Program-made: the position numbers and the translations under genes
Part shown: positions 1,930 through 17,344 of the stretch, one piece after another
How the letters are laid out: every line of letters starts with the position of its first letter
Numbering within the stretch: the stretch's first letter is position 1
Assembly: GCF_000260965.1 (NCBI RefSeq)
Contig: NC_017856.1
Location: forward strand, 1,440,001-1,472,000
DNA: 32,000 bases
Origin: Methylophaga frappieri
GTDB taxonomy: Bacteria > Pseudomonadota > Gammaproteobacteria > Nitrosococcales > Methylophagaceae
Direction: 5' to 3'
Notes under the pieces: generated by a model
Seen by the model: only the letters and a program-made list of their open reading frames with translations
The model's database searches: none
What the model was told of the DNA's origin: nothing

Positions 1930-2397
1930 ATGACAAAAATAGAATATACAAATTTGCAAGATCTTGATCAGGGTGAATTGCTTTCAGTCTTAAATAAAGA
2001 CAAGATCCGAGAGCACTTGGTATCACACGATAAATTCAACGAACAATCGTTGGCTGAATGGGTTTCAAGCAAGCTTAGTGTAGATTCAGCCGAAGGATGT
2101 AAAGTAAGAGGAATACGTGTAAATGGGGCTGTTGCTGGTTGGTGTGGAATCCAGTTTGAAAATGAATCCTATGAGCTCGCAGTAGTTTTGAATGAAGCCT
2201 ACTGGGGTATTGGTACTGCCGTGTTTAAAGACATGATGATATGGGCTTCAGAGTTGGGCCACAGACTTGTAGTTTTGCATTTGTTTAATACTCGCCCTGA
2301 ATACAAGTTTCTTACAAAAATAGCATCACGAGTGTACGAAAGCACGATGTTTGGTCAAAAATACACGAGCTATGAACTTAGGGTGCCAAGTGCCTAA
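1930..2397 (+). CDS. GNAT-family N-acetyltransferase (cassette 1)
   Basis: 155 aa. It has a GNAT-like motif A region, VVLNEAYWGIGTAVFKDMMIWASELG. The stop lies inside the attC R'' box. Confidence 0.5.
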   Translation: MTKIEYTNLQDLDQGELLSVLNKDKIREHLVSHDKFNEQSLAEWVSSKLSVDSAEGCKVRGIRVNGAVAGWCGIQFENESYELAVVLNEAYWGIGTAVFKDMMIWASELGHRLVVLHLFNTRPEYKFLTKIASRVYESTMFGQKYTSYELRVPSA

Positions 2398-2445
2398 CAA
2401 GGCAAGGCAGTCGGATGCTTCGCACCGCTGCTTGCGGCGTTATGT
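2392..2445 (+). other. attC site 1 (54 bp)
   Basis: R'' GCCTAAC at 2392-2398 and R' GTTATGT at 2439-2445. The internal imperfect palindrome GCAGTCGG...CCGCTGC carries a bulged base. Confidence 0.7.
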
Positions 2446-2458
2446 GAAGGGGTAAAAA

Positions 2459-2953
2459 TTGAAGTCAGCAATAATCTTTGGTTCATCTAGATACGATGGA
2501 AATACGAGTCAATTGGTCAAACAAGTTCGCTCAGAGATAGATGCTTCATTGTTTGAACTAAAGGATTACGACATCACACCTTTCGATTATCAACATCAGA
2601 ACAAAAATGATGACTATCTGCCGTTGGTTAGAGAGTTGGTACAGCATGATCACCTTGTGTTTGCTACACCAGTCTATTGATATTCGATGAGTGCTCAATT
2701 AAAAATCTTTTTCGACAGACTTTCTGATCTTCTGACAATTGAAAAGGATTTAGGGAGACGGTTGAGAGGTTTATCTTGTTCTATTCTGGCAACGGGTAGT
2801 GATAGCGCTTTACCCGAATGTTTTGAAGAGACATTTAAACTGACTTTTGAATACCTCGGCATGACATACAAAGGGGTGCTTTATTGTCCCTGTATTGATG
2901 CTGTTGAGATGAAACTTCCCTCAAGAGAACTGATACATGAAATCATCAAATAA
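2459..2953 (+). pseudogene. Flavodoxin-like fold NAD(P)H-dependent FMN reductase family gene interrupted by one in-frame TGA (cassette 2)
   Basis: ORFs 2459-2680 and 2687-2953 are in the same frame. The junction reads ...FATPVY-TGA-YSMSAQLKIFFDR, whereas this family normally reads PVYWYSM, so TGG to TGA. TTG start at 2459 with GAAGGGG upstream. Confidence 0.7.
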
Positions 2954-3003
2954 CAAGTCACTGCCGTCGACCGCTAGCACGGCGGCTGAATGAAGCGTTA
3001 AGC
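2948..3003 (+). other. attC site 2 (56 bp)
   Basis: R'' AAATAAC at 2948-2954 and R' GTTAAGC at 2997-3003. It shares AAGTCACTGC...GGCTGAATGAAGCGTTA with sites 4 and 6. Confidence 0.75.
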
Positions 3004-3025
3004 ATTCTTAGAATCGGAGCATGTA

Positions 3026-3538
3026 GTGAAGTCGGATATATCAATGGAAAAGCTGAAAGAAGATCACGCATCAGAGCTTTACGAGTTGACTGAATGTAAC
3101 CGTGAGTACTTGCGAGAGTGGCTCCCTTGGCTTGATTCAATAGGTTCGATCTCCGATACGATGGCATTTATCGAATCTACAACGAATGGCCCTGCAACAT
3201 TTGCACTATTTTACAGTGGTAAAATTTGTGGAGTAGCTGGCTTTCACAACATAAACAGCCAGCACAAGTATGGGTCAATTGGGTATTGGATAGCCCAGAA
3301 TCGAACTGGAAAGGGAATTGCTACAGCCGCAGTCAAAGAATTGCTTAGAATTGGATTTGAAGAATATAGTCTCAATAAAATTGAAATAAGATGTGCGAAA
3401 AATAATTCGAAGAGCCGAGCTATTCCAGAGCGACTTGGATTCAAATATGAAGCAAGTTTAAGGCAATGTGAGTGGCTATACTCAAAGTTTGTTGATCATG
3501 CAATATACTCAATGCTGGCATCAGAGTATCGTGCTTAA
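3026..3538 (+). CDS. RimJ/RimL-type GNAT N-acetyltransferase (cassette 3)
   Basis: The region LYELTECNREYLREWLPWL...GYWIAQNRTGKGIATAAVKELL...IEIRCAKNNSKSRAIPERLGF is typical of the Acetyltransf_3 group. The start is either GTG 3026 or ATG 3044. Confidence 0.75.
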   Translation: MKSDISMEKLKEDHASELYELTECNREYLREWLPWLDSIGSISDTMAFIESTTNGPATFALFYSGKICGVAGFHNINSQHKYGSIGYWIAQNRTGKGIATAAVKELLRIGFEEYSLNKIEIRCAKNNSKSRAIPERLGFKYEASLRQCEWLYSKFVDHAIYSMLASEYRA

Positions 3539-3568
3539 CAAGCTTGTCCGCTGACAGGGGCGTTAAGT
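3533..3568 (+). other. Mini attC-like site 3 (36 bp)
   Basis: GCTTAAC (3533-3539) + 22 nt + GTTAAGT (3562-3568). Only a short CTTGTC/GACAGG stem lies between the core sites. Confidence 0.5.
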
Positions 3569-3583
3569 ATCGAAAGGGATATT

Positions 3584-4183
3584 ATGCAAAACTTAACGGA
3601 CTTACCTGAAAACTTACCTGTTCCTTTTGATGATGGTGCTTGTGATCACCTTAAAAACAGGAAACTTCCCTCAATTAGGCTATCAACAACTGATGATTTG
3701 GAAGTCGATTTCTCTAATCTTGATAATCGTGTAGTTATTTATTTCTATCCAATGACTGGTCGACCGGGTACCACATTGCCTGATGGCTGGGATGAAATTC
3801 CTGGTGCTAGAGGCTGCACCCCACAATCTTGTTCATTTAGAGACCATTACTTAGAGTTGAGGGAACTTCAAGCTTCAGTTTATGGGCTCAGCACTCAGAA
3901 TACTGAGTATCAAAAAGAAGCAGTAAGCCGCCTGCACCTCCCATTTCCATTGGTTAGTGATAGTTCTCTAAAATTCATTCAAGCATTGAATATCCCAACT
4001 CTGGAGGTCTCAGGTATGACCTTGTCTAAACGGGTGACGGTAATAGCTAATCATGGGGTTATAGAAAAAGTTTTCTATCCAGTATTTCCACCCAATGAAA
4101 ATGCAGATGAGGTCATAAAATACCTAAAAGCAAAAAAGCTTAACAAGACACTGCAGCCGACTGCTATCGCGTCGACTGAATGA
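3584..4183 (+). CDS. Peroxiredoxin (AhpC/TSA, BCP-like) (cassette 4)
   Basis: VVIYFYPMTGRPG...ARGCTPQSCSFRD...LPFPLVSD shows a thioredoxin-fold peroxidatic Cys context. The last ~15 codons (LNKTLQPTAIASTE) are read-through into attC 4. Confidence 0.7.
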   Translation: MQNLTDLPENLPVPFDDGACDHLKNRKLPSIRLSTTDDLEVDFSNLDNRVVIYFYPMTGRPGTTLPDGWDEIPGARGCTPQSCSFRDHYLELRELQASVYGLSTQNTEYQKEAVSRLHLPFPLVSDSSLKFIQALNIPTLEVSGMTLSKRVTVIANHGVIEKVFYPVFPPNENADEVIKYLKAKKLNKTLQPTAIASTE

Positions 4184-4193
4184 AGCGTTATAT
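4138..4193 (+). other. attC site 4 (56 bp)
   Basis: R'' GCTTAAC at 4138-4144 and R' GTTATAT at 4187-4193. The stem is CAGCCGAC/GTCGACTG with one mismatch. Confidence 0.8.
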
Positions 4194-4213
4194 CCAGGGA
4201 TGAGTAGCGAGCT

Positions 4214-4633
4214 ATGTTAATCACTGAAGTATCTGAACCGTCAGAAGAGGACTTTGAGGTCCTGAAAAATGGACTAAATGGGTTCAATGAGGTTCATTCT
4301 GGGCCACTTCTTAATGAAAAGGTTTCATCGTTTGTAAAAAATGATAAAAATGAAACGGTAGGCGGTATCCTCGGAGAAATTAACTGGGGTTGGTTACACA
4401 TAAAAGGGTTATGGGTTTCGGAGTCCGTGAGGTCTAAAGGATTGGGGGCAGGCCTCCTAAGTAAGCTTGAGACTTATGCGAAATCAAAAGGCATAACTAA
4501 CATTCGACTTGAAACAACATCCTTTCAAGCCTTGGGCTTCTATGAAAAACAAGGATATGTTTTATTTGGGCAATTACCTGATATGCCTCCGACCTACACA
4601 AGCTATTTTTTAATGAAGCAGACAAGGATATAA
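4214..4633 (+). CDS. GNAT-family N-acetyltransferase (cassette 5)
   Basis: 139 aa with motif A, VSESVRSKGLGAGLLSKLETYAKSKG, followed by FYEKQGY. Confidence 0.7.
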   Translation: MLITEVSEPSEEDFEVLKNGLNGFNEVHSGPLLNEKVSSFVKNDKNETVGGILGEINWGWLHIKGLWVSESVRSKGLGAGLLSKLETYAKSKGITNIRLETTSFQALGFYEKQGYVLFGQLPDMPPTYTSYFLMKQTRI

Positions 4634-4658
4634 CAAGCCGCTGTGCTGGGCGTTAGGC
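4628..4658 (+). other. Mini attC-like site 5 (31 bp)
   Basis: ATATAAC (4628-4634) + 17 nt + GTTAGGC (4652-4658). Confidence 0.45.
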
Positions 4659-4664
4659 TGTGAT

Positions 4665-5138
4665 ATGGAATCTCAAAAAGTGAATTATGATCTCCGACGA
4701 GCTAACGAAGGTGATTATGAATTTTGTTACAAGCTTACAAAACAGAATATGTACGACCTATTTTGTCGTCACTGGGGTGGTTGGTTCGACTCAGAATTCC
4801 GAAAAGGCTTTGTCGCAGACAATATTCAAATAATAAGAGTCAGAGATAAAGCGATAGGGTATTTCAGCTATGTAATCAACAAAGATTCACTCTACATCGA
4901 TAACATTCAACTTGCCTCTCAATTTCAAGGGCAAGGTATTGGGACAAAGCTTCTCACTGATTTTCTGACAAAAAATCAAAATACTGTAATCAGACTCACA
5001 ACGTTTGAGGATAATCCGGCCAAACATCTTTATGAAAAATTGGGATTTAAAGTGATTGTAAGAAATGGTTCTACAATCAAGATGGAGATAGTGCCTAACA
5101 AGTCACTGCAGCCGACCACTACCGCGTCGGCTGAATGA
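4665..5138 (+). CDS. GNAT-family N-acetyltransferase (cassette 6)
   Basis: 157 aa with motif A, QLASQFQGQGIGTKLLTDFL, followed by HLYEKLGFKV. The tail (NKSLQPTTTASAE) is read-through into attC 6. Confidence 0.7.
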   Translation: MESQKVNYDLRRANEGDYEFCYKLTKQNMYDLFCRHWGGWFDSEFRKGFVADNIQIIRVRDKAIGYFSYVINKDSLYIDNIQLASQFQGQGIGTKLLTDFLTKNQNTVIRLTTFEDNPAKHLYEKLGFKVIVRNGSTIKMEIVPNKSLQPTTTASAE

Positions 5139-5148
5139 AGCGTTATAT
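5093..5148 (+). other. attC site 6 (56 bp)
   Basis: R'' GCCTAAC at 5093-5099 and R' GTTATAT at 5142-5148. The stem CAGCCGAC/GTCGGCTG is perfect. Confidence 0.8.
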
Positions 5149-5160
5149 GCCCGAGAGAGT

Positions 5161-5676
5161 ATGTGCGTGGAACAACTAGAGAGAGCTAAAAGATATCTCA
5201 CTCGCATGGAAAAAATATATGAAGGAATATTTTCATCATCACATGATCGTGACTCATATGACGATGATGTGATTTCATTCTTTATTCATTGTTACCACGT
5301 TAGAGACTGGATTATCCATTTGAATAGGCTGGGGGCTACGGCTAAAGAGGTAGATTTATACATAAATAGTCACAGGTCTCTAATGATTTGCGCGGATCTC
5401 GCGAATGGATCTAAGCACTGTAAATTGACGCGGTCGTTACGAACAGAACGACAACCTCATATTTCAGGTACGCGGCGAGATACATCGGGATGGCTAACTG
5501 GCGACGGAGGCGGAGAGGTTATGAAGTGTAAATATACCGTGCTCAGTAATGAAGATTTCTTAGATGCCCTTGAACTAGCAAGAGACAGTGTCACATTGTG
5601 GGAGAAATACATGGTGGCACTCCAAGAGGCATATAACAAATCAAAGCAGCAAGAGCCTTCGGCCGGGACGTGCTAA
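5161..5676 (+). CDS. Hypothetical protein (cassette 7)
   Basis: 171-aa ORF starting 13 nt after the attC 6 core. No motif I can assign with confidence. CADLANGSKH is faintly reminiscent of a degenerate HEPN-type helix, which is speculative. Confidence 0.4.
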   Translation: MCVEQLERAKRYLTRMEKIYEGIFSSSHDRDSYDDDVISFFIHCYHVRDWIIHLNRLGATAKEVDLYINSHRSLMICADLANGSKHCKLTRSLRTERQPHISGTRRDTSGWLTGDGGGEVMKCKYTVLSNEDFLDALELARDSVTLWEKYMVALQEAYNKSKQQEPSAGTC

Positions 5677-5703
5677 CACGCGCCCCTGTTTGAGGCGTTA
5701 GCC
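5671..5703 (+). other. Mini attC-like site 7 (33 bp)
   Basis: TGCTAAC (5671-5677) + 19 nt + GTTAGCC (5697-5703). Confidence 0.45.
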
Positions 5704-5705
5704 AT

Positions 5706-6134
5706 ATGAACGAAGAAGAACGCTGTAATCACATCGTATCGCTTGATGAAGAACTCTTAAAAGGTGGGGCCATCCTCTCGGAGTGCTGCTCTTTTATGAT
5801 CCGAGAATCGGATTTGGCGTCTGTACATGGAGCAAATCTGACATCAATACTTACGGCAGTTTCTGGGATCGAAACCTATCTGCGCTCCGAGTATTCCGAG
5901 AAAGAGCGCTGTAGCCTCTTTGAGTTAATTGATCGTGCTCCCATATCAGACGACCTTCGATCTGATTTGCACAAGCTAAGGAAGTACCGAAATATGTGGG
6001 GGCATGTAAATGACCCATGGGATGATCAAATGCTGCTAGATGCTCCTGAAGAGTCGGAAAAAGAGCTAGAAGAAATAGCTCTGTTCGCCGCTAGAGCGCT
6101 GAGAAAAACAATTTATGAGAATCAGTGGGTCTAA
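5706..6134 (+). CDS. HEPN-domain protein (DUF4145-like architecture) (cassette 8)
   Basis: 142 aa. The C-terminal helix carries the R-x4-H HEPN signature in the common RN form: LHKLRKYRNMWGHV. No adjacent MNT-type partner is present. Confidence 0.55.
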   Translation: MNEEERCNHIVSLDEELLKGGAILSECCSFMIRESDLASVHGANLTSILTAVSGIETYLRSEYSEKERCSLFELIDRAPISDDLRSDLHKLRKYRNMWGHVNDPWDDQMLLDAPEESEKELEEIALFAARALRKTIYENQWV

Positions 6135-6137
6135 AAT

Positions 6138-6185
6138 GGCTAACCAAACAATTAAATTTGCACCCTGCGGTCGCTGGGCGCTAGA
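6138..6185 (+). other. Terminal attC-like site 8 with a mutated R' core
   Basis: R'' GGCTAAC at 6138-6144. The distal box reads GCTAGAC (6179-6185) instead of GTTAGAC. It shares GCTGGGCG with mini site 5. Confidence 0.45.
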
Positions 6186-6197
6186 CATCTAAAACGA

Positions 6198-6605
6198 ATG
6201 TTCCAACAATCAATCGCCACAATTAGAGCCCTCTTCGTCCTCTCAATCAGCATATTCTTGTTGTCCTGTGAGAAAGCACCAATTACAGAAACATGGATCG
6301 GAACATATTCCTTCCCCACCGATGAGTCACCGGATTTTCCACTGTATATGTCGCTAATAATCCAAGACGACGTCGTAACTGGACAAGCCATCGACGGAAA
6401 CATGGAAAAAGCACCTATCAGCGGAAACATTGAGGCTGGCTTCTATTCCCTGCTTTTACATCCTCTAAAGCACGGCTCCAAAACAAACCAAGATGTCACG
6501 TATCAAGGCCAACGGCTTGGCAACACCATAGAGGGAGAGCGGGTTCATGTAGTCGGGGCCAAAGGCCAATGGAAAGCCAACATCTTTTCTAAAGCATCAG
6601 ATTGA
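6198..6605 (+). CDS. Putative lipoprotein, function unknown
   Basis: The signal peptide has a lipobox: FVLSISIFLLSC. No attC follows. The 3' end overlaps the convergent ORF by 9 nt. Confidence 0.5.
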   Translation: MFQQSIATIRALFVLSISIFLLSCEKAPITETWIGTYSFPTDESPDFPLYMSLIIQDDVVTGQAIDGNMEKAPISGNIEAGFYSLLLHPLKHGSKTNQDVTYQGQRLGNTIEGERVHVVGAKGQWKANIFSKASD

Positions 6606-6866
6606 GTTTTTATTACGCTCAATTAGACGGTCAAATTGCTTATAGAATGAAGGTGCCTTATCAACCAATATTTTCTCTACGATAATTTTTCTTCTATCCG
6701 AGAAGCCAAGATCTTCATGGAAAATGATCTTCTGGCCATCAATCTTTTGAATTACCCCATTTTCCATGCAGAGTTTTAGACGATATTTTGCCAGCAGATA
6801 TCGCCTGTAAATGATAAATGTCAGTAATGCAGTTAATGTAATGATCAATATCCATTCAGTAAGCAT
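6597..6866 (-). CDS. Small single-pass membrane protein, last gene of the T4SS-fragment operon
   Basis: 89 aa with the N-terminal TM WILIITLTALLTFIIY. It starts 27 nt after the VirB6-like stop. Confidence 0.4.
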   Translation of the reverse strand: MLTEWILIITLTALLTFIIYRRYLLAKYRLKLCMENGVIQKIDGQKIIFHEDLGFSDRRKIIVEKILVDKAPSFYKQFDRLIERNKNSI

Positions 6867-6893
6867 TGCTCAATCCCTCGAAGGCTCATCATT

Positions 6894-7901
6894 TTACGAA
6901 CCAGTGATGGTATTACCTCTTCTCAATTTTGCTGTAATAGCTTTTGCCACGTTACGTGATGATTTTGCACCTTCCACAGTGCTTTTTCCGGCCTTGAAAG
7001 TAAAACGACCTACCCCTCTCACACTATCTACCATTGAGCCCGTGATACGACGACCTGAGAGCATTGAACTCAAAGAAATACCGTGAGCTAAGCTTGATGC
7101 AATGGAAGTCACTTGCAGCAGAACTAAAATCGCCATAACTGACAGAAATATTGCCGGTATGGCACCTTTAACCTCAACGTTTGATGGTGTTGCCACGGCC
7201 GTATAGGCGGACAAATAGTTACTCAACAAGGTGACGATTAATTTGAGGATGGCACCTACTAACATTGAAATAAAAATAAAATTTAAACACTGCATAATCC
7301 ATGACTCAAACAGCCTTTTCGTCGGTTCGAACATAATCAAAACAATAAAAATTGGTCCGACCGCTAATAAAGCAGATAGAGCTAGTTTTGATAACACCAA
7401 TAGAAACGCCCCCACAATTGTGAGAGCCAAACCTAACAGCCAAATCACGTATGCGGACAACAATAACGATAGATTAGGTATACCCCATTCAGCCTCTAGC
7501 TCAGCCTTGGTCTGAAATGTGGTACCCAAATCCCACATATCCATCAAAATGCTATCCAGAAACCCACCGATACCTGTCGCCCCACCTGTCGTAGATGCTA
7601 AGTTCGCTAAGCTACTTGGTAGGTTAAACAGAAAATCCACAACAAATGAATTGTAATAGCCAAGGTTTACAGCCAAAGAAACAATAAGGGTTAACTTCAC
7701 AACACGATTGAAGCCATCAGTCACCAGCTCAGTCGAGTTTCCAGTGATAACCTTCCATCCCCACAAAGTCACGTAAATCAGCAATAACGTCGTCACAACT
7801 GGCGTAATGGATGCAATGACTGATGTTGCAACGTCATTGATATATGTGGCTAATGTTGTATCAATCTCATCAAACGTTTTTTGTACTAATGTAGCTGCCA
7901 T
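6894..7901 (-). CDS. Type IV secretion system VirB6/TrbL-family polytopic inner-membrane protein
   Basis: 335 aa. The N-terminus TFDEIDTTLATYINDVATSVIASITPVVTTLLLIYVTLWGWKVITG and multiple TM segments are typical of TrbL/VirB6. The gene order J-lipoprotein-L matches IncP trbJ-trbK-trbL and pKM101 traC-eex-traD. Confidence 0.75.
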   Translation of the reverse strand: MAATLVQKTFDEIDTTLATYINDVATSVIASITPVVTTLLLIYVTLWGWKVITGNSTELVTDGFNRVVKLTLIVSLAVNLGYYNSFVVDFLFNLPSSLANLASTTGGATGIGGFLDSILMDMWDLGTTFQTKAELEAEWGIPNLSLLLSAYVIWLLGLALTIVGAFLLVLSKLALSALLAVGPIFIVLIMFEPTKRLFESWIMQCLNFIFISMLVGAILKLIVTLLSNYLSAYTAVATPSNVEVKGAIPAIFLSVMAILVLLQVTSIASSLAHGISLSSMLSGRRITGSMVDSVRGVGRFTFKAGKSTVEGAKSSRNVAKAITAKLRRGNTITGS

Positions 7902-7915
7902 GTCGTGTTAGTCCC

Positions 7916-8131
7916 TTACCAGTCAACAAAGTCCAGTCCTTTACCACCCGTACTCTCAATTCTTTTTTGCTTCATTTTCTCGTTGAATGTCATTTTGCAG
8001 AGGTCTCTATCATTGAGATTAGTGATAGCCAAACATTCCTCGATGACTTCAGGTTCAATCGCTACCTTTCCTTCCTCTTTGCATCCATTCAAAGTTGCCA
8101 ATGCAATAAGTATTAATGTCCAATTTTTCAT
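7916..8131 (-). CDS. Small lipoprotein in the TrbK/Eex (entry-exclusion) position
   Basis: I chose the internal ATG at 8131, preceded by GGAAGAG. It gives MKNWTLILIALATLNGC with a lipobox. The 95-aa version from TTG 8203 would overlap the upstream gene. 71 aa. Confidence 0.6.
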   Translation of the reverse strand: MKNWTLILIALATLNGCKEEGKVAIEPEVIEECLAITNLNDRDLCKMTFNEKMKQKRIESTGGKGLDFVDW

Positions 8132-9378: not shown

Positions 9379-9630
9379 TTGAGTACACACCCAATCTTTG
9401 CTGACACAGCGGTTTCTATATCGGACCTGAAGAAAAACCCTATGGTCGTGATTGAACAGGGCAAAGGCTTTCCTGTCGCTGTACTGAAGAAAAATGTCCC
9501 TGTGTTCTACGCTGTACCAGCGGCAGCATATGAAGCGTTAATAGATAAGCTGGATGATATGGAACTAGCCCAAATTGTCCATGAGCGTGAAGGCCAACCG
9601 TCCAGAGTAATTACACTGGATGAGCTGTAA
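9379..9630 (+). CDS. Phd/YefM-family type II antitoxin (no cognate toxin ORF downstream)
   Basis: 83 aa. TTG start with GGGAG 7 nt upstream. SISDLKKNPMVVIEQGKGFPVAVLKKNVPVFYAVPAAAYEALIDKLDDMEL matches the Phd/YefM/StbD pattern. Confidence 0.7.
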   Translation: MSTHPIFADTAVSISDLKKNPMVVIEQGKGFPVAVLKKNVPVFYAVPAAAYEALIDKLDDMELAQIVHEREGQPSRVITLDEL

Positions 9631-9710
9631 CCAAGGCTTACTAGGCAGACATTACATGAAACCAAAATACCTCGTTGCGCAATACGCAACACGCTGATAA
9701 ACTACTAATC

Positions 9711-9989
9711 ATGATTAAGAGCTTCAAACATAAAGGACTTGAGAAGTTTTTCACGACTGGAAGCACAGCCGGTATTCAGGCGAAACACTCAGCAAAGGTT
9801 CGAGATCAACTTGCGTTCTTAGATTCTGCAACCTGTATCGAAGATATGGATTTACCCAGCTTTCGACTGCATGAATTAAAGGGCAAGCTTAAAGGAAAGT
9901 ATTCCATTACTGTTTCAGGGAATTGGCGAATTGTCTTTGAGTTTATAGATGGAGACGCTTACATCGTTAATTATGAGGATTATCACTAA
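9711..9989 (+). CDS. higB: HigB toxin (RelE/ParE superfamily, plasmid maintenance system killer)
   Basis: From ATG 9711: MIKSFKHKGLEKFFTTGSTAGIQAKHSAKVRDQL...GNWRIVFEFIDGDAYIVNYEDYH, the canonical HigB sequence pattern. It overlaps higA by TAATG. Confidence 0.9.
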   Translation: MIKSFKHKGLEKFFTTGSTAGIQAKHSAKVRDQLAFLDSATCIEDMDLPSFRLHELKGKLKGKYSITVSGNWRIVFEFIDGDAYIVNYEDYH

Positions 9990-10327
9990 TGACTTTTCAA
10001 CAACATAACCCGCCCCACGTTGGCGAATTAATTTATCGCACATACATTGAACCATTCGATGATGTATCAGCTAACAAAATTGCTGTTGCATTGGGTGTAT
10101 CGCCAAGCACATTTAACCGTTTATTAAACGGTAAATCTGATTTATCACCTGAAATGGCTGTACGTCTTTCTGCTGTTCTTGGACGTACCGCTGAAAGCTG
10201 GTTACGTCTTCAGGAAAGTTATGATCTATGGCAAGCAAAACAGAAAGTCGATACAAAAAGTCTACATAAAATAGACTTTGCTCAATTCGCTGAACAGGTG
10301 AGAGGAGAGCTACTCGAACCCTACTAA
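9989..10327 (+). CDS. higA: HigA antitoxin (XRE-type HTH)
   Basis: HPGELI-like N-terminus (PPHVGELIYRTYIEP) followed by the HTH ANKIAVALGVSPSTFNRLLNGKSDLSPEMAVRLSAVLG. Confidence 0.9.
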   Translation: MTFQQHNPPHVGELIYRTYIEPFDDVSANKIAVALGVSPSTFNRLLNGKSDLSPEMAVRLSAVLGRTAESWLRLQESYDLWQAKQKVDTKSLHKIDFAQFAEQVRGELLEPY

Positions 10328-10346
10328 GTAATGAAGGTGTATTGAA

Positions 10347-10673
10347 ATGAAATACAAAGGATATGAAGCTGTTATTAGATACAGTGATGAAGATGAAACC
10401 TTTATCGGTGAAGTGGTCAACACTCGCGATATTTTAGTATTTGACGGTAATGATATTGCCGAAATAACTGACTCATTCCACGCTGTTGTAGATGAGTATT
10501 TACAAGGTTGTGAGGATGAAGGAAAAGCACCTGAAAAGCCATTCTCAGGGCAGTTTGTTATGCGAGTTAAGCCAGAACTGCATAGAGAATTATTCATTAA
10601 AGCTAAAGAATCAGGCAAAAGCCTAAATGCTTTTGTTAGTGAGCAGTTAGACCGGATTGCTCATACATCATAA
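10347..10673 (+). CDS. HicB-family antitoxin-like protein with C-terminal RHH (no hicA nearby)
   Basis: MKYKGYEAVIRYSDEDETFIGEVVNTRDILVFDGNDIAE...FSGQFVMRVKPELHRELFIKAKESGKSLNAFVSEQL is the HicB_lk_antitox pattern. GAAGGTG lies upstream. Confidence 0.7.
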   Translation: MKYKGYEAVIRYSDEDETFIGEVVNTRDILVFDGNDIAEITDSFHAVVDEYLQGCEDEGKAPEKPFSGQFVMRVKPELHRELFIKAKESGKSLNAFVSEQLDRIAHTS

Positions 10674-10686
10674 GGTTTTAAACGTT

Positions 10687-11178
10687 ATGGAAAACGCCAT
10701 TACCAACACAACAAAACAGCATTACATCACGTCGATTGCTGCCCTTAATATCCCGTCACTGGATGGTACGGGAGACTGGCATTTTTCGGATTGTTTTATT
10801 CATCATGGGGACTTTTTACCCCAGCAACACTTAGCCGAAATCGACACAATATCGACCCGTCACCTACTCGGTGACTATGGCATTTTTGAATGCTCAGACA
10901 TTCTTAAAAAATATGGTGCTTCACCATTGCCAGACCAAGCCGAAATCTATGCAGCAAATCACTATCGCGCCGTTGTAGATATGATCTTTGATCTGGTCAA
11001 GAACGGCCAAAGCATCACGGACACGGTGATTTTAGATGACTGGTTCCCCGAAGACTCGGAAAAGCAGACCGTCTACCAGCTGCTAGATAAGCTCAAAGCG
11101 GATTTGACTGATCAACAATGGATGATGATTGACGAATGGAAGACATTATCTAGAGCAATTACTCATCTGAGTATCTGA
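10687..11178 (+). CDS. Hypothetical protein (163 aa)
   Basis: I prefer ATG 10687 over the overlapping TTG 10657. It starts 13 nt after the hicB-like stop. No recognisable motif. Confidence 0.45.
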   Translation: MENAITNTTKQHYITSIAALNIPSLDGTGDWHFSDCFIHHGDFLPQQHLAEIDTISTRHLLGDYGIFECSDILKKYGASPLPDQAEIYAANHYRAVVDMIFDLVKNGQSITDTVILDDWFPEDSEKQTVYQLLDKLKADLTDQQWMMIDEWKTLSRAITHLSI

Positions 11179-12218: not shown

Positions 12219-12743
12219 ATGGAGTTTGTAAAATTGGAATGGTTAGAAAAATACGGTGATTTTGACTCACCTGATAAAAGGGAAGAATTTTTCAGGAGCC
12301 ATGTCATAGATATACATCAGGGTGATATGCTGTTTTCCGGCGGCCTAGATCCTTTTATTTTATATGAGATTGAAGATAGCTTTAAACGAGGTAATTTTAT
12401 TGCTTGTATCTTACTTTGCCAACTGGCTATAGAACACTGTTTGGCAAATGAATTCCTCCTAACCGAACATGAATCAATTTGTACAAGAGGATTCGCACAG
12501 CTTATTTCTAAAGCCCGTGAACTCGATATTATTGATAAAGCTATGGAGTCACAGTTAACAGAGTTGCGTCTAATGAGAAACCCTCATGTTCATCCTAGGT
12601 TTGGAGATGGTAAAGGCACTTACATTCGGAGAGTTATAGATAAAGGACTGAATTACAATGAATTACCTGTGGCAGATGGCATTGAAGCTATTAAAATTTT
12701 AGGTTGTTACTTAAACACACCGCGCCTTTATGAATGGCGTTAG
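12219..12743 (+). CDS. HEPN-domain protein (DUF4145-like)
   Basis: 174 aa. It has the paired-helix pattern FKRGNFIACILLCQLAIEHCL ... QLTELRLMRNPHVH with the R-N-x3-H motif. It ends at TAG 12741-12743, which is in frame with the next ORF. Confidence 0.6.
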   Translation: MEFVKLEWLEKYGDFDSPDKREEFFRSHVIDIHQGDMLFSGGLDPFILYEIEDSFKRGNFIACILLCQLAIEHCLANEFLLTEHESICTRGFAQLISKARELDIIDKAMESQLTELRLMRNPHVHPRFGDGKGTYIRRVIDKGLNYNELPVADGIEAIKILGCYLNTPRLYEWR

Positions 12744-13535
12744 TTGCACCATAATGACGAGGATCTTGAATTGTTAATTGATAAAAATTGGTGCCTTCAA
12801 AACGCTTTTGATGAAATCAATCAAGTTTATTATCCTGGGGGATTAACAACTGGCCCCCAACGAAACAGGCTAATTGAAGCTTGGGGTCAGTTAGTTGGGA
12901 AAACAAAAGCTTTGGCTGAACTAGATTTACTGGTTGTTGAATATGGCTCCATCAACAAAATGTCAAAATCTGTCCGAATGAGTCCCCAGTCAATTAAATA
13001 TCTCAGAAATTTTTTTGAATCGTTACCTGATGACTTTGAACAAATCATTCCTATGAAAAGTTATGAATTTATTGAAGGAAGAAAATGCTCACTGGAAGAA
13101 AATCTTTACCATGAATTTAAAGAAGTAAATGGTAACAACCCCACAAAATCTATTCAAAATCTTGTTGATGAATATATTTTGGCATTTTTAAATAGTTCTG
13201 GTGGTAGTATCTTCTGGGGTATTTGCGATGATGGAAAGGTAAAAAGCCTTGAGCTAAACTCTAGAGAAAAAGACGATATTAAAAAAGCTATCTATCAAAA
13301 GATAAATACAATTGAGCCATCGATAGACCCAACTAAAATTGGAATTCACTTCCACAAGGTTTTAGAGGCTACAAATGGTCATGTATTAGAAGTAAATGTG
13401 CCGAAATCAAACTCAACAGGCTTATACTTTAATTCGTCAGGCAACACTTGGGTTAAAGTTAATGGCTGTAAGCAAAAGCTTCAAGGCTTGGCACTACAAG
13501 ATTATATTATTCAACGTATTCAAGATTACGATTAA
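12744..13535 (+). CDS. Schlafen-like AlbA_2 domain protein (possibly the C-terminal part of an amber-interrupted HEPN fusion)
   Basis: The C-terminal half LVDEYILAFLNSSGGSIFWGICDDGKVKSLEL...GHVLEVNVPKS...WVKVNGCKQKL matches the AlbA_2 (Schlafen-group divergent AAA) pattern. The only start is a TTG directly after the upstream TAG. The first in-frame ATG is codon 73. Confidence 0.5.
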   Translation: MHHNDEDLELLIDKNWCLQNAFDEINQVYYPGGLTTGPQRNRLIEAWGQLVGKTKALAELDLLVVEYGSINKMSKSVRMSPQSIKYLRNFFESLPDDFEQIIPMKSYEFIEGRKCSLEENLYHEFKEVNGNNPTKSIQNLVDEYILAFLNSSGGSIFWGICDDGKVKSLELNSREKDDIKKAIYQKINTIEPSIDPTKIGIHFHKVLEATNGHVLEVNVPKSNSTGLYFNSSGNTWVKVNGCKQKLQGLALQDYIIQRIQDYD

Positions 13536-13593
13536 CAAGTGCCAAGCCAATACAATTGACATTATTAACCAACGAGAAAATACAACTAAAGAG

Positions 13594-14904
13594 CTATATG
13601 TCTTCCTTATATTCAATTTTGTATGGTTGAAGATCCGCTAACCATTTTTTCAATGTTGTAGCACGACGTTTAGCCGTTTTCTCAGATAATGAAGATACGC
13701 AGTTTAAGAGGAACTGCTCAGCTGAATTCGGATCCAATTCACTAATATCTGATTTTTCACAATACCTCATCCACTTAGTGCCACATTCAGAAAGCTCAAA
13801 TAGATTTGCTAAGACTTGATACTTTATATGATTTGATTTCCGAGTTAATAAAAACGATCCTTCGGAAGTAATTTCATTTTTCCTAGTAAGTAACCCTAAC
13901 GCCTTTGCTGCATCAACATAATAACTAACCTGTCTTGGTGAGTTTATGTTTTCAAAATTATCATGTGTCAGTGTTTTACCATGATCCACTAAATCCATAA
14001 CTTTAAGGATGGTTTCTATATCATTTGCTTGAGGAACATCAATTGATGATATGGATGTTAAATTAGTATTTTTTAGCGGATCTAGCTTCTCTTTAACGCT
14101 TTGGTTATCTAGAACAATTTCATTTCCAATATACTTTGGAATAATTTTCACATTTACATTACTAGAAACTATTTTGTTATAAAACTGCTCAATTTGATGA
14201 GTATCAAGTGAATATTTAGAAAGGGCTTCATTAAGTTGTTCAATATTGCCTGCTGTAAAAACATTTTCGAGTACGTCTAAGGCTTTATAGGCAAGCTCTT
14301 CATCATTAGCACCAAGTCTTACATCAACAGAACTAAAGTCTGCTCCCAACTCATACAGGTTGAATACTCGTTTATTGGAAAGATCAAATAAACTCATAGC
14401 TGACTTAAACAGCTCTGTAAACTGTTCTTGAATCGCATTCGAAATATCTGCTGCAACCTTATGTGTTTTTTTGTTTACATTTTTTACGACTAGCCTAAAA
14501 ATCCAACTTTCTTCAGGTGAAGAGCTCCACTTATCGATTGAGTCAACATAAAACCCTTCTGTTGGTAGAAAGTCATCGGGCAAATCTTTTTGTCTAATAA
14601 AAGTTACTTCATCTTGCTCAGGATCTTTTCCAATATAAGCCAAATAGTAACCTCGTTCAGGCTGCTCATATGCTTCTCTAAACGAAATCCGCTTAGCTCT
14701 CAATAGGTTGAGTTTGTTTTTTGATATAGGTAAATAAAGCCAACCCTCTTTATGTACTGGTTCACTTTTTTTATCGCACCAAAAGACAATGTAATAGGTG
14801 CCCATAACCTTATCTTTTGCACAATAAAGAGTTGGCATATCAAAGTATTCATATACTTCAATAATGCTTAAATCTCCTAACTGGGATTTTTTATTTAGCA
14901 ACAT
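13594..14904 (-). CDS. Hypothetical 436-aa protein, third gene of the methyltransferase operon
   Basis: GGTGAG SD 4 nt before the ATG, which lies 9 nt after the upstream stop. No nuclease or NTPase motif is visible. The C-terminal segment SPRQVSYYVDAAKALGLLTRKNEITSEGSFLL looks winged-helix-like. Confidence 0.6.
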   Translation of the reverse strand: MLLNKKSQLGDLSIIEVYEYFDMPTLYCAKDKVMGTYYIVFWCDKKSEPVHKEGWLYLPISKNKLNLLRAKRISFREAYEQPERGYYLAYIGKDPEQDEVTFIRQKDLPDDFLPTEGFYVDSIDKWSSSPEESWIFRLVVKNVNKKTHKVAADISNAIQEQFTELFKSAMSLFDLSNKRVFNLYELGADFSSVDVRLGANDEELAYKALDVLENVFTAGNIEQLNEALSKYSLDTHQIEQFYNKIVSSNVNVKIIPKYIGNEIVLDNQSVKEKLDPLKNTNLTSISSIDVPQANDIETILKVMDLVDHGKTLTHDNFENINSPRQVSYYVDAAKALGLLTRKNEITSEGSFLLTRKSNHIKYQVLANLFELSECGTKWMRYCEKSDISELDPNSAEQFLLNCVSSLSEKTAKRRATTLKKWLADLQPYKIEYKEDI

Positions 14905-14913
14905 TAGCTCACC

Positions 14914-15354
14914 TTATACTGGATGTATTTTTACAACACAGCTCCATGGTTGGGCACTCACATCAAACCAAACTGAAAAATGATTTGGTCTAGTCTCTTT
15001 CATTACCCCTAAGCTTGGCTTTAAATTAACCTCAGCAATTTTCACATTAGCAGTTCTATTCTTATGTATAGCTATGCGCCTACAATTTTTTATATTGTCA
15101 AAGTGCGATGTAGCGAAGGCGTCACATTGTTTATCTTTTGGTAGGTCACCAAACCTTTCAGAAAGCTCACCACATTCATCTCTAAATCCATAGTGTATTT
15201 GGTGTGGGTCATCAACAGTCATCAGAAAGTCATCGTCATCTGGAGGAGAGTTATAAACTATTCTAAAAAGGATACCTGTAGTAGGAATACTACCGGTTAA
15301 AGGGCAGTGTTTCGGCATATCCTGTGCCCAACTATAACTACCTTGTGCTGTCAT
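14914..15354 (-). CDS. Hypothetical 146-aa Cys/His-rich protein, second gene of the methyltransferase operon
   Basis: AAGGA SD, starting 17 nt after the MTase stop. It begins ...HCPLTGSIPTTGILFRIVYNSPPDDDDF and ends ...HFSVWFDV. I cannot name a family. Confidence 0.55.
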   Translation of the reverse strand: MTAQGSYSWAQDMPKHCPLTGSIPTTGILFRIVYNSPPDDDDFLMTVDDPHQIHYGFRDECGELSERFGDLPKDKQCDAFATSHFDNIKNCRRIAIHKNRTANVKIAEVNLKPSLGVMKETRPNHFSVWFDVSAQPWSCVVKIHPV

Positions 15355-15371
15355 AAACCATCCTTATTTTT

Positions 15372-16055
15372 CTAATGACTAAGCTCATTATATAAACGTT
15401 CTTTAGCAACACTTACTGCTTCCTCAGCTATGTCTACTCCTAAGAAGCGTCTATGATTTCGAATTGCAGCGACACCAAACGATCCCGCCCCCATGAATGG
15501 ATCCACTATAAGCTCACCCTCATCTGAACTTTGACCAATCAAAATTTCAGCTAATTCTACTGGCTTTTCAGTTGGATATCCTCTATAAACTCTAGGGACC
15601 TCTAGAATATCTGGAATAGAAAAGTTTTTTAACTTCCTTTTTCCTTTTTCAAAAAACAGGATAAATTCATATCTTGCACGATAGTGATAGCCCATTCCTA
15701 TCTTTTTTTTGTCCCAAATTAGTGGTTTCCAAAACTTAAAACCTACTTTTTCAGCTATAGGTTTTACAATAAATGCAGTCTCTTGATCACAAAATAAATA
15801 AAAGTGGGAGTTTTTTTTGAGAACTCGATATATTTCAATAAATAATTGTTCAAAAGATGAGTTAGGAAAAATAGTAAACCATGCGTTGCTTGATGCCTTG
15901 CTATTTTTCAAGCGTGTTGTTGTTCCAATTGCTCTGTGTTTTTCTAATGACTCATATGGTGGATCAGTGATAAACAAATCAACAGACTCGTCAGCCAAAG
16001 CTCCTAAAAAATCAAGTGCATCTGCACATTTTAAGTCAAAATTCGTTATTTCCAT
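15372..16055 (-). CDS. DNA methyltransferase, beta-class N6-adenine/N4-cytosine (DPPY type)
   Basis: Motif IV LFITDPPYES precedes motif I LIVDPFMGAGSFGVAA, which is the beta-class order. I prefer ATG 16055 (MEITNFDL). The ORF track's TTG 16091 lies inside a hexamer repeat. Confidence 0.8.
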   Translation of the reverse strand: MEITNFDLKCADALDFLGALADESVDLFITDPPYESLEKHRAIGTTTRLKNSKASSNAWFTIFPNSSFEQLFIEIYRVLKKNSHFYLFCDQETAFIVKPIAEKVGFKFWKPLIWDKKKIGMGYHYRARYEFILFFEKGKRKLKNFSIPDILEVPRVYRGYPTEKPVELAEILIGQSSDEGELIVDPFMGAGSFGVAAIRNHRRFLGVDIAEEAVSVAKERLYNELSH

Positions 16056-16152
16056 TTTTATAATTTGAGGAAGACTCAACCTCAACCTCAACTTCCAACT
16101 TTAATAAGAGCAAAGGTCGGAAGCTTATCATTTTTAGTGCACTACGTTTACA

Positions 16153-17139
16153 TTACTTAGTTAACCTTCGTGCTAAATCCTCCGCTTTTAAGTGGGTATA
16201 ACGCTTTAACATCATCAAATCCTTATGGCCAGTTATGGATGAAACTTCCATTATGTTCAATCCCATCTCAAAAAATCGACTTGTAGCTTCATGCCGTAAA
16301 TCATGGAAACGTAAGTTTGCGATATTGGCACATTTACAACAACGTTCAAATGCATGTGTTATAGAATCAGCACGCATTGAAAACACTTTACCGTTAATAT
16401 TTCGTGGGATCTCAGCAAGGATATTTAATGCCGATGTAGAAAGTGGGACTGTTCTGCTATCACCATTCTTTGTATCTGGGAGAGTTACAACTCTCTTGGC
16501 TATATCAATGTTTTCCCAGCGCAGTTTGGCAATTTCTCCTCTACGCATGGCAGTCTCAATTGCAAATCGAATAATGGCTGATATTTCACCACCGTATTTT
16601 TTTGCTGCATCAAGAATCCGTTCCTGTTCATTCCCTTCTAACCTACGCTCCCTACCTCGTTTTGGCTGAGGTGGTACAGTGATCCTGTCTACAGGATTGC
16701 CATGAGGCAAATAAATGCCCCATTCCTTGGAGGCAATGGTCAGGATCCGTTTAATACACAACAACTCTTTTCTAACGGTTTCCGGCTTTACTCTTTTAAG
16801 CCTAGTGTCTCTGTAATCTGCCAACACACTAGGGGTGATGCTAATGACAGCATATTCCCCAATGCAATTGCTGATACAACGAATCATCGATCCCATACTG
16901 ACAGCAGACTTTTTCGAGGGGAGTATTTCAGTAATATAACGTTTAGTTAATTGCTGGACAGTGGTGGTTTCTGCAAGAGTGCTTGAAATGAACATTTTGT
17001 TGTCCATTTGAGCTTCAACTTGAGTAGCCCACTTTTGGGCCAGAGATTTGTTTCTGAATGTTTTGGTTTGGACTGGGTAGCCTTTTTTGCGGACTTTTGC
17101 CTGCCATTGGCCTTCCCCACGCTTTATATAACTTGCCAT
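16153..17139 (-). CDS. Tyrosine site-specific integrase
   Basis: 328 aa. The N-terminus is KRGEGQWQAKVRKKGYPVQTKTFRNKSLAQKWATQVE. The catalytic region carries RRGEIAKLRW, RFHDLRHEATSRF and GHKDLMMLKRYTH (R..H-x-x-R..Y). It is transcribed away from the adjacent tRNA 3' end. Confidence 0.9.
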   Translation of the reverse strand: MASYIKRGEGQWQAKVRKKGYPVQTKTFRNKSLAQKWATQVEAQMDNKMFISSTLAETTTVQQLTKRYITEILPSKKSAVSMGSMIRCISNCIGEYAVISITPSVLADYRDTRLKRVKPETVRKELLCIKRILTIASKEWGIYLPHGNPVDRITVPPQPKRGRERRLEGNEQERILDAAKKYGGEISAIIRFAIETAMRRGEIAKLRWENIDIAKRVVTLPDTKNGDSRTVPLSTSALNILAEIPRNINGKVFSMRADSITHAFERCCKCANIANLRFHDLRHEATSRFFEMGLNIMEVSSITGHKDLMMLKRYTHLKAEDLARRLTK

Positions 17140-17267: not shown

Positions 17268-17344
17268 TGGCGTCCCCGGCAGGATTCGAACCTGCGACCT
17301 TACCCTTAGGAGGGGGACGCTCTATCCAGCTGAGCTACGGGGAC
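17268..17344 (-). tRNA. tRNA-Arg (anticodon CCT), CCA encoded
   Basis: The reverse complement is GTCCCCGTAGCTCAGCTGGATAGAGCGTCCCCCTCCTAAGGGTAAGGTCGCAGGTTCGAATCCTGCCGGGGACGCCA. It folds as a cloverleaf. The acceptor is GTCCCCG/CGGGGAC, the D stem GCTC/GAGC, the T arm GCAGG-TTCGAAT-CCTGC and the anticodon loop CTCCTAA. The anticodon stem has one C-T mismatch. Confidence 0.9.

Follow-up and report, generated by a model that had tools for sequence, protein, structure and literature searches.

In this study we have analysed a 32,000-nucleotide (nt) stretch of the Methylophaga frappieri chromosome (contig NC_017856.1, positions 1,440,001 to 1,472,000; hereafter, the window), in which two open reading frames (ORFs) follow one another on the forward strand in the same reading frame, with a single TAG codon between them. 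The first, ORF A, would encode a small HEPN-type protein, and the second, ORF B, a prokaryotic Schlafen (pSlfn) protein with an AlbA_2 nuclease domain. A first-pass annotation of this DNA proposed three ways of reading the arrangement: a fusion gene interrupted by an amber codon, stop-codon read-through, or a tightly coupled two-gene module. Our analysis makes it very likely that ORF A and ORF B are instead two separate, intact and independently mobile genes, lying side by side in a genomic island integrated at a tRNA-Arg gene. The features on which this reading is built are the following.

12219..12743, plus strand: ORF A, with LRLMRNPHVH (containing R-N-x3-H) at residues 116-125.
12576..12593, plus strand: R120-N121-P-H-V-H125, the Rx4H HEPN catalytic motif, placed by the family alignment.
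12741..12743, plus strand: TAG, the genuine stop codon of ORF A.
12744..12770, plus strand: intergenic spacer of 27 nt, open in frame by chance and containing the Shine-Dalgarno sequence GAGGA (12759-12763).
12771..13535, plus strand: ORF B, a pSlfn of 254 amino acids (aa), with a helical N-terminal domain of ~95 aa and a C-terminal Slfn/AlbA_2 nuclease domain.
13098..13121, plus strand: E110-x4-E115-F-K117, the Ex4ExK catalytic motif.
13227..13229, plus strand: D153, the third catalytic acidic residue, 38 residues after E115.

The elements that gave rise to the idea of a fusion are all present in the sequence: LRLMRNPHVH lies in ORF A, the AlbA_2-type block AFLNSSGGSIFWGICDDGKVKSL lies in the second ORF, the frame is shared and only the TAG stands between the two. 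ORF A extends over 174 aa from ATG 12219 and terminates at TAG 12741-12743; RefSeq (WP_151194733.1) starts it at TTG 12234 (169 aa), fitting the 'MEW...' N-terminus of its homologues. A TTG at 12744 comes directly after the TAG, and from there the frame is uninterrupted until TAA 13533-13535, the first ATG, counted from 12744, being codon 73. The late position of this ATG had been noted correctly, but the second ORF does not need the TTG immediately after the stop. The start conserved throughout the family is TTG 12771, which is also the one used in RefSeq (WP_041366996.1, 254 aa), while the original GenBank entry (AFJ02586.1, 263 aa) used 12744.

The evidence for this start is comparative. 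Across 13 homologous loci (window 12771; L001 6001; L003 6001; L005 1414; L016-L023; L085 4001) the equivalent codon is TTG in 12 and GTG in one, and the N-termini of the homologues read M-[LI]-I-[ND]-K-N-W, corresponding to TTG 12771 and not to TTG 12744. A purine-rich Shine-Dalgarno sequence (AAGGA, GAGG or AGGA) is found 5-9 nt 5' of the start in most of these loci and, in the window, GAGGA ends 7 nt before it. The number of in-frame codons from the conserved TTG back to the preceding stop varies from 0 to 12, the stop codon of L017 being immediately 5' of the TTG. Because the conserved start of ORF B is TTG 12771, the nine codons after the TAG are a spacer carrying a ribosome-binding site. 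The conservation of a non-ATG codon at this position suggests a deliberately weak initiation for a potentially toxic nuclease.

The junction can be compared with that of L005, a 3.2-kb contig that contains orthologues of ORF A (82% aa identity) and ORF B (87%) and is the only other locus with an ORF A-then-ORF B pair. There, ORF A stops at a TAA, five codons earlier than in the window, and is followed by a 20-nt spacer with AAGGA and by ORF B, which begins at the same conserved TTG, in a different frame from ORF A; the two junctions differ by a 17-nt indel. When the window is compared with L005, the ratio of nonsynonymous to synonymous substitutions (dN/dS, Nei-Gojobori) amounts to 0.165 in ORF A and 0.107 in ORF B (dS ~0.65 in both cases), and therefore both ORFs are maintained by purifying selection as working, separate genes.

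Homology searches point in the same direction. With a fused query of 438 residues, in which X takes the place of the stop, we recovered 77 protein clusters, in none of which the match extends over more than 58% of the query; all of them measure 245-342 aa and match the AlbA_2 half only, the best one being a M. frappieri protein with 100% identity. The 19 clusters recovered with ORF A (163-184 aa) are all free-standing, and an exhaustive phmmer search with ORF A among 1.84 billion representatives gave 111 matches, nearly all of 100-230 aa and none fused to AlbA_2, the three longer ones being an ABC-ATPase+DUF4145 protein, a HEPN protein and a leucine-rich repeat (LRR) protein. Thus, no homologue is fused with a sense codon at the TAG position: all are split (77 of ORF B and 19 of ORF A). 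Distant AlbA_2 proteins from metagenomes (39 proteins, loci L029-L078) likewise include none with a HEPN partner. Among the partners to which they are fused, we counted ABC/SMC-type ATPases (15), receiver domains (4), PF01555 methyltransferases (3), MazF/PemK (3), protein kinases (3) and a STAND NTPase (1). The three MazF/PemK-Slfn fusions indicate that two different RNase toxin domains can share one protein.

The interpretation of the pair as an amber-interrupted HEPN-AlbA_2 fusion of 438 codons, that is, a recently inactivated toxin gene, takes its appeal from the common frame and the lone TAG. However, the homologues recovered include no fusion, the L005 pair does not share a frame, ends ORF A with TAA and shows a 17-nt indel, ORF B starts from a conserved TTG behind a Shine-Dalgarno sequence of its own, and the dN/dS values of 0.11-0.17 apply to both ORFs separately, so that this interpretation is almost certainly wrong. 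The coincidence it relied on is also a modest one. Two genes on one strand have a one-in-three chance of sharing a frame, and a nine-codon AT-rich spacer is free of stops about half the time; from these inputs, our own rough estimate of the chance of a shared frame with no further stop in the 27-nt AT-rich spacer is ~0.18. The shared frame and the single TAG between ORF A and ORF B are coincidental.

A programmed read-through of the TAG, giving some HEPN-Slfn fusion besides the two separate products, would profit from the same matching frames and from the absence of a second stop in the nine codons that follow. Nevertheless, the frame relation is not kept in L005, and TAG is an ordinary stop in this window, where it ends 5 of the 31 long ORFs; ORF B, in addition, has a conserved TTG and a Shine-Dalgarno sequence of its own. 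Rfam detects no structured RNA element at the junction, its sole match in the window being a tRNA, and there is no suppressor tRNA in the window, tRNA-Arg being the only tRNA there. Read-through is, in our opinion, exceedingly unlikely. A reassignment of TAG or its decoding by a suppressor tRNA was also considered and rejected, given that TAG ends 5/31 long ORFs and that tRNA-Arg alone is encoded in the window.

The reading as two separate genes is further supported by the way in which each of them occurs elsewhere. We scanned 90 loci (L001 to L090) with hidden Markov models (HMMs) of both families for their co-occurrence. No HEPN-like ORF was found upstream of full-length ORF B homologues in ~10 contexts (Aliivibrio L001; Aeromonas L002-4 and L020; L016, L018, L021, L023, L025, L027 and L028; Vibrio parahaemolyticus L085-90), and no AlbA_2 gene downstream of ORF A homologues in 7 (Photobacterium L006/L012 and L011; Alteromonas L013; L007-9; L080; L081/82; L083/84). 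P0079, which outside L005 is the closest homologue of ORF A (84% identity), is unpaired and is followed by an unrelated convergent gene, and a genome-locus search with the closer ORF A-family alignment gave 3 true loci. Members of the ORF B family are found widely in Vibrionaceae, Aeromonas and marine metagenomes, where they often form integron cassettes. Both Aliivibrio and V. parahaemolyticus have the AlbA_2 gene as the sole gene of a cassette, bounded by attC-type repeats that start at its stop codon. The HEPN-like gene of V. parahaemolyticus is also a single-gene, attC-flanked integron cassette. Since each forms single-gene cassettes, each gene is independently mobile and presumably autonomous.

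Two side observations concern the cassettes of the ORF B family. The stop of ORF B (window 13533-13560) falls within TAACAAGT. The 5' core of the attC-like repeats in the window itself (GCCTAACAAGTCAC...) has this identical sequence, and there is also a resemblance to TAACAA, with which the attC sites open where the Vibrio homologues have their stop codons; TAACAAGT may be what remains of a cassette origin. In L028 (3986-4779), a variant of the 254-aa pSlfn (pSlfn-254) is split into two overlapping ORF pieces with a duplicated 'ENYKFIEG' segment, in a cassette-like array, and is probably a frameshifted pseudogene.

Several observations weigh against the independence of the two genes. The two genes have stayed adjacent in L005, separated by a short spacer, over a dS of 0.65, and there is no terminator-like site between ORF A and ORF B; in a promoter and terminator scan around both genes, the sites found did not exceed those of shuffled sequence and the plus strand between the ORFs was empty. 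A second adjacency of both families, in the opposite order, exists in L083 (168-909) and L084 (147-888), where a 3' remnant of a pSlfn-254 gene (~45 codons; residues 210-251, 76% identity) lies ~100 nt upstream of an intact ORF A homologue, with a HEPN_Cthe2314 gene 18 nt further on. Furthermore, DUF3644 genes are neighbours of ORF B homologues in Aeromonas, directly after the AlbA_2 gene (L002-4 6836-8053, L020 2224-3435, L022 966-2180), and of ORF A homologues in Alteromonas, directly before them (L010 4732-5985, L013 3726-4979). These DUF3644 proteins have 405-417 aa and a conserved R-[ND]-x3-H motif; DUF3644 corresponds to the HEPN family EC042_2821 of Anantharaman et al. 2013 (PMC3710099) and has been validated as the single-gene defence HEC-08 (bioRxiv 10.1101/2024.01.29.577857). 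On a different plane, the HEPN support for ORF A alone is sub-threshold, and its structural E-values are weak (at least 0.14).

These neighbourhoods are what a loosely coupled two-gene module would look like, in which a HEPN RNase and a pSlfn cooperate, by regulation, neutralisation or as dual RNase effectors, and in which the HEPN partner (ORF A family or DUF3644) is exchangeable. Such a module would agree with the pairing kept in L005 at a spacing of 20-27 nt, with the AlbA_2-254 remnant directly upstream of the ORF A homologue in L083/L084, and with the DUF3644 genes that follow AlbA_2 in L002-4, L020 and L022 and precede the HEPN-like gene in L010 and L013; Schlafen-HEPN fusions of the MAE_18760 family have been described (PMC3710099), and the MazF-Slfn fusions show that dual-RNase architectures exist. 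However, each adjacency amounts to a single evolutionary event, L002-4/L020/L022 being one Aeromonas locus and L010/L013 one island type; the partner is absent from most contexts and both genes occur as single-gene integron cassettes; and in L083/L084 it is the HEPN-like gene that is intact, while the AlbA_2 gene is dead. HEPN genes are very common in defence islands, and 3 of ~11 contexts are unremarkable. Because the adjacencies are single events and HEPN genes are so common, we regard a functional module as unlikely. The tight coupling proposed by the first-pass annotation thus stands only in so far as the pair recurs in one close relative, and it is at odds with the ~10 ORF B and 7 ORF A contexts that have no partner. 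A broader version, in which the 254-aa pSlfn would be part of a loosely linked, partner-swapping dual-RNase defence module of marine Gammaproteobacteria, together with small HEPN-type RNases (ORF A family, DUF3644, perhaps HEPN_Cthe2314), seems to us unlikely and rather speculative. If it were true, the HEPN protein would gate or complement the Schlafen nuclease, and the Methylophaga pair would be one realisation of the scheme.

Within the reading as two separate genes, ORF A can be assigned to the HEPN superfamily, as a stand-alone, minimal putative RNase belonging to a small family of its own. The assignment of the first-pass annotation holds at the superfamily and family level, but not above the Pfam cut-off for ORF A alone: PF05168 (HEPN) scores E 0.01 (16.4 bits against a cut-off of 22) and DUF4145 E 0.075 (13.5 bits against 23.1), these generic HEPN and DUF4145 matches being the only ones. 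Among 29 members of the ORF A family, 12 match PF05168 and 11 match DUF4145 (E <= 0.01; best E 1.2e-5). Residues R21, E50, E72, L116, R117, R120 and H125 are invariant in the 29 members, with identities down to 20%, and N121 is conserved in at least 90% of them. The AlphaFold2 (AF2) model of ORF A is all-helical, with a predicted local distance difference test score (pLDDT) of 88.7, and it places the Rx4H motif at the C-terminal end of helix 107-124 and E72 in helix 60-79; an Rx4H motif together with an acidic residue in helix 2 defines the HEPN RNases (PMC3710099). A Foldseek search of the Protein Data Bank (PDB) returned HEPN proteins in 17 of the 18 top matches (AF_0298, HepT, sacsin), the other being the HEPN-clan subunit 1wty, all with weak scores (E at least 0.14, template modelling score 0.3-0.5). 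The PDB sequence search with both HEPN-like profiles gave a weak match to Cas13b at the RNxxxH motifs (E 0.18) and, apart from it, chance ComA matches only.

The assignment of ORF B is firmer. PF04326 (AlbA_2) matches residues 119-246 of the second ORF with E 2.9e-16 (60.5 bits against a cut-off of 25.3), covering positions 1-117 of the 118 in the profile, and this part of the first-pass annotation is confirmed; NCBIfam has nothing for ORF B and PADLOC has no model for either ORF. Of the catalytic residues, E110, E115 and K117 do not vary among 23 close relatives, in which D153 reaches at least 90% conservation; in the 39 distant proteins all four are invariant. The ORF B family profile matches rat SLFN13 (5yd0) with E 9e-7, and in this alignment E110, E115 and D153 correspond, with the same 38-residue spacing, to SLFN13 E205, E210 and D248, whose mutation abolishes RNase activity (PMC5862951). 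In the AF2 model (pLDDT 85.3), five N-terminal helices (residues 9-84) precede an alpha/beta domain, and the 35 Foldseek matches with E <= 1e-3 (1e-7 to 2e-4) are all AlbA_2 domains of SLFN5/11/12/13/14, of SAMD9 (tRNase/DNA-binding domains) or of the bacterial protein DIP2311. The N-terminal helical domain is conserved, has no Pfam match and, in P0077, is joined to a different C-terminal domain; it may serve as a sensor or regulator. According to the study describing them, pSlfn defence nucleases share an Ex4(E/D)xK motif and work as single genes with variable fused sensor domains, 17% having unannotated domains (PMC13056530). ORF B, firmly AlbA_2/Schlafen by sequence and predicted structure, is best filed as a new small member of this pSlfn family.

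These assignments allow us to propose how the two products might work. The protein of ORF A (from 12219 or 12234 to 12743) would be a metal-independent RNase using R120 and H125, and it probably acts as a dimer, like other HEPN toxins. ORF B would be translated from its weak TTG behind GAGGA, yielding a putative helical sensor or regulator attached to a Slfn nuclease with an Ex4ExK + D active site. On the model of RorSlfn5, EcoSlfn7 and mammalian SLFN11/13, ORF B may cleave tRNA or other RNA upon a phage trigger. The two genes are probably co-transcribed, although neither would need the other.

The pair is located in a low-GC region, whose right boundary is marked by a step in GC content, from 46-50% to 33-42% left of ~17.3 kb, and coincides with a tRNA gene and an integrase gene. 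ORF A and ORF B are thus within a tRNA-Arg-integrated mobile defence/cargo island of M. frappieri. No att repeat that would mark the left boundary was found in the window. Beyond the pair, the features at this end of the island are the following.

13594..14904, minus strand: convergent neighbour, a DUF6575 + DUF7226 protein of 436 aa (Pfam), with a weak PADLOC match to PD-T4-10_B (E 1.3e-9).
15372..16091, minus strand: PF01555 DNA methyltransferase (Pfam).
16153-17139, minus strand: tyrosine integrase, adjoining the tRNA-Arg(CCT).
17268-17344, minus strand: tRNA-Arg(CCT), right end of the island.

The DUF6575 gene is the sole flanking gene that is also kept in L005 (2237-3208, minus strand; 62% identity). 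In the window, a 146-aa ORF without family matches lies upstream of it (the two span 13594-15354, minus strand), in a minus-strand operon with the methyltransferase. To the left of ORF A, a 173-aa ORF (10657-11178, plus strand) is hit by the PADLOC AbiEi model (E 7e-54), with no significant Pfam match, and is preceded by small genes of toxin-antitoxin type, HigB/HigA-like and HicB-like (9379-10673). A RepA_C replication gene with three iteron-like repeats behind it (23 nt each, spaced at 32-33 nt; 1115-1202, or 192-1202 with the gene), and a TrbL/VirB6 gene (6894-7901) are remnants of a plasmid or of an integrative and conjugative element inside the chromosomal island. Between them, at 1930-6605 (plus strand), there is a series of small same-strand genes (four GNAT acetyltransferases, a redoxin and three unknowns), with attC-like repeats of ~69 nt (GCCTAAC...GCGTTA) between the genes, at 2948-3016, 4138-4206 and 5093-5161. 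This segment resembles an integron-type cassette array; an integron integrase is not to be seen in the window. One ORF of the array (5706-6134) shows a weak match (E 1e-4) to the HMM of the HEPN-like family.

The methyltransferase of the island, 1.8 kb away from ORF B, raises the question of whether ORF B has a different partner, in a restriction-modification-like or methylation-sensing arrangement in which ORF A would be a bystander. Methyltransferases with 71-72% identity are directly beside pSlfn-254 genes in L016 (5133-5789) and L023 (3288-3941), in two gene orders; L068 (237-962) contains an adjacent methyltransferase and AlbA_2 pair; and PF01555-PF04326 fusion proteins occur in metagenomes (L033 987-2528, L048 1-1017 and L049 2882-4477, the latter representing L049/50/52). 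However, the methyltransferase is absent near most pSlfn-254 loci (L001, Aeromonas, L018, L021, L085-90), in the window it is on the opposite strand from ORF B with two genes in between, orphan methyltransferases are common island cargo, and the Schlafen nucleases characterised so far act on RNA. For these reasons we consider it improbable that the methyltransferase is the real partner of ORF B. The methyltransferase-Schlafen link nevertheless looks at least as recurrent as the HEPN link, and the main text of the pSlfn paper (PMC13056530) is silent on it. As a separate observation, a Cys-rich ORF of 92-93 aa accompanies the methyltransferase and pSlfn-254 in both L016 and L023.

As regards fusion and recoding, the pair was a false lead: what the window contains is neither a toxin fusion broken by a stop nor a case of recoding, but an ordinary arrangement of two neighbouring defence-type nuclease genes. 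Through ORF B the pSlfn proteins gain a compact 254-aa variant, which starts at a conserved TTG and has a helical domain without annotation at its N-terminus. ORF A defines a small family of stand-alone HEPN proteins, whose genes travel in the same pool of cassettes and islands. Both are cheap candidates for minimal single-gene RNase defences, and the recurrent methyltransferase-Slfn neighbourhoods and fusions may turn out to be the more interesting lead.

The combination of the two domain types is not without precedent. The first-pass annotation knew of no described pairing of HEPN and Schlafen domains, whereas HEPN domains of the MAE_18760 family fused to Schlafen domains were already listed by Anantharaman et al. 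in 2013 (PMC3710099). As in the window pair, Schlafen and HEPN RNase domains meet there in the context of a conflict system. The MAE_18760 fusions, however, are single polypeptides with an N-terminal Schlafen domain, while the window contains two genes, HEPN then Slfn, with a HEPN domain of another family. A fusion of this type was rejected for the window on account of the stop, the spacer and the own start of ORF B, the differing frames in L005 and the absence of fused homologues.

On the HEPN side, the HepT/MntA type VII toxin-antitoxin system (PDB 5yep, 6m6u, 7ae8) shares with ORF A the Rx4H motif and a probable four-helix HEPN core, and is among its top, though weak, structural matches, but ORF A has a conserved N-terminal extension of ~45 aa. 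The NCBIfam HepT model gives ORF A 12.4 bits, far below its cut-off of 60, and no MNT nucleotidyltransferase gene is found among the window neighbours (Pfam) or beside the ORF A homologues; it was the missing MNT gene that led us to reject a HepT/MntA-type toxin. The HEPN protein of an integron cassette (PDB 3jrt; PMC3710099) resembles the ORF A family in being a small stand-alone Rx4-6H protein from a gammaproteobacterial cassette. It was recovered neither by the family-profile PDB searches (E <= 1 and E <= 10) nor in the top 50 Foldseek matches, and in view of this lack of detectable similarity ORF A represents a separate family. HEC-08 (DUF3644, EC042_2821) is likewise a stand-alone HEPN protein, in which the histidine of the Rx4-6H motif is needed for phage defence (bioRxiv 10.1101/2024.01.29.577857). 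It belongs to a different HEPN family from ORF A and is much larger (~400 aa), with extra domains, and there is no HEC-08 in the window.

On the Schlafen side, the closest known systems are single-gene pSlfn defence nucleases such as RorSlfn5 and EcoSlfn7, presented by Perez Taboada et al. (Nat Microbiol 2026, PMC13056530). Like them, ORF B combines a Slfn domain with an accessory domain, and it resides in a defence island; in contrast to the pSlfns tested there, it is small (254 aa) and its accessory domain is N-terminal and helical, not of the Ig-like, DUF262 or HisKinase type. The fold of ORF B also matches the nuclease C-lobe of mammalian SLFN11/12/13/14 (5yd0, 7zel, 7lrc; PMC5862951), with the same spacing of the catalytic triad. 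Unlike the mammalian proteins, to which it is 16-22% identical, ORF B has a single AlbA_2 lobe instead of a two-lobed pseudo-dimer, and is devoid of linker and helicase domains.

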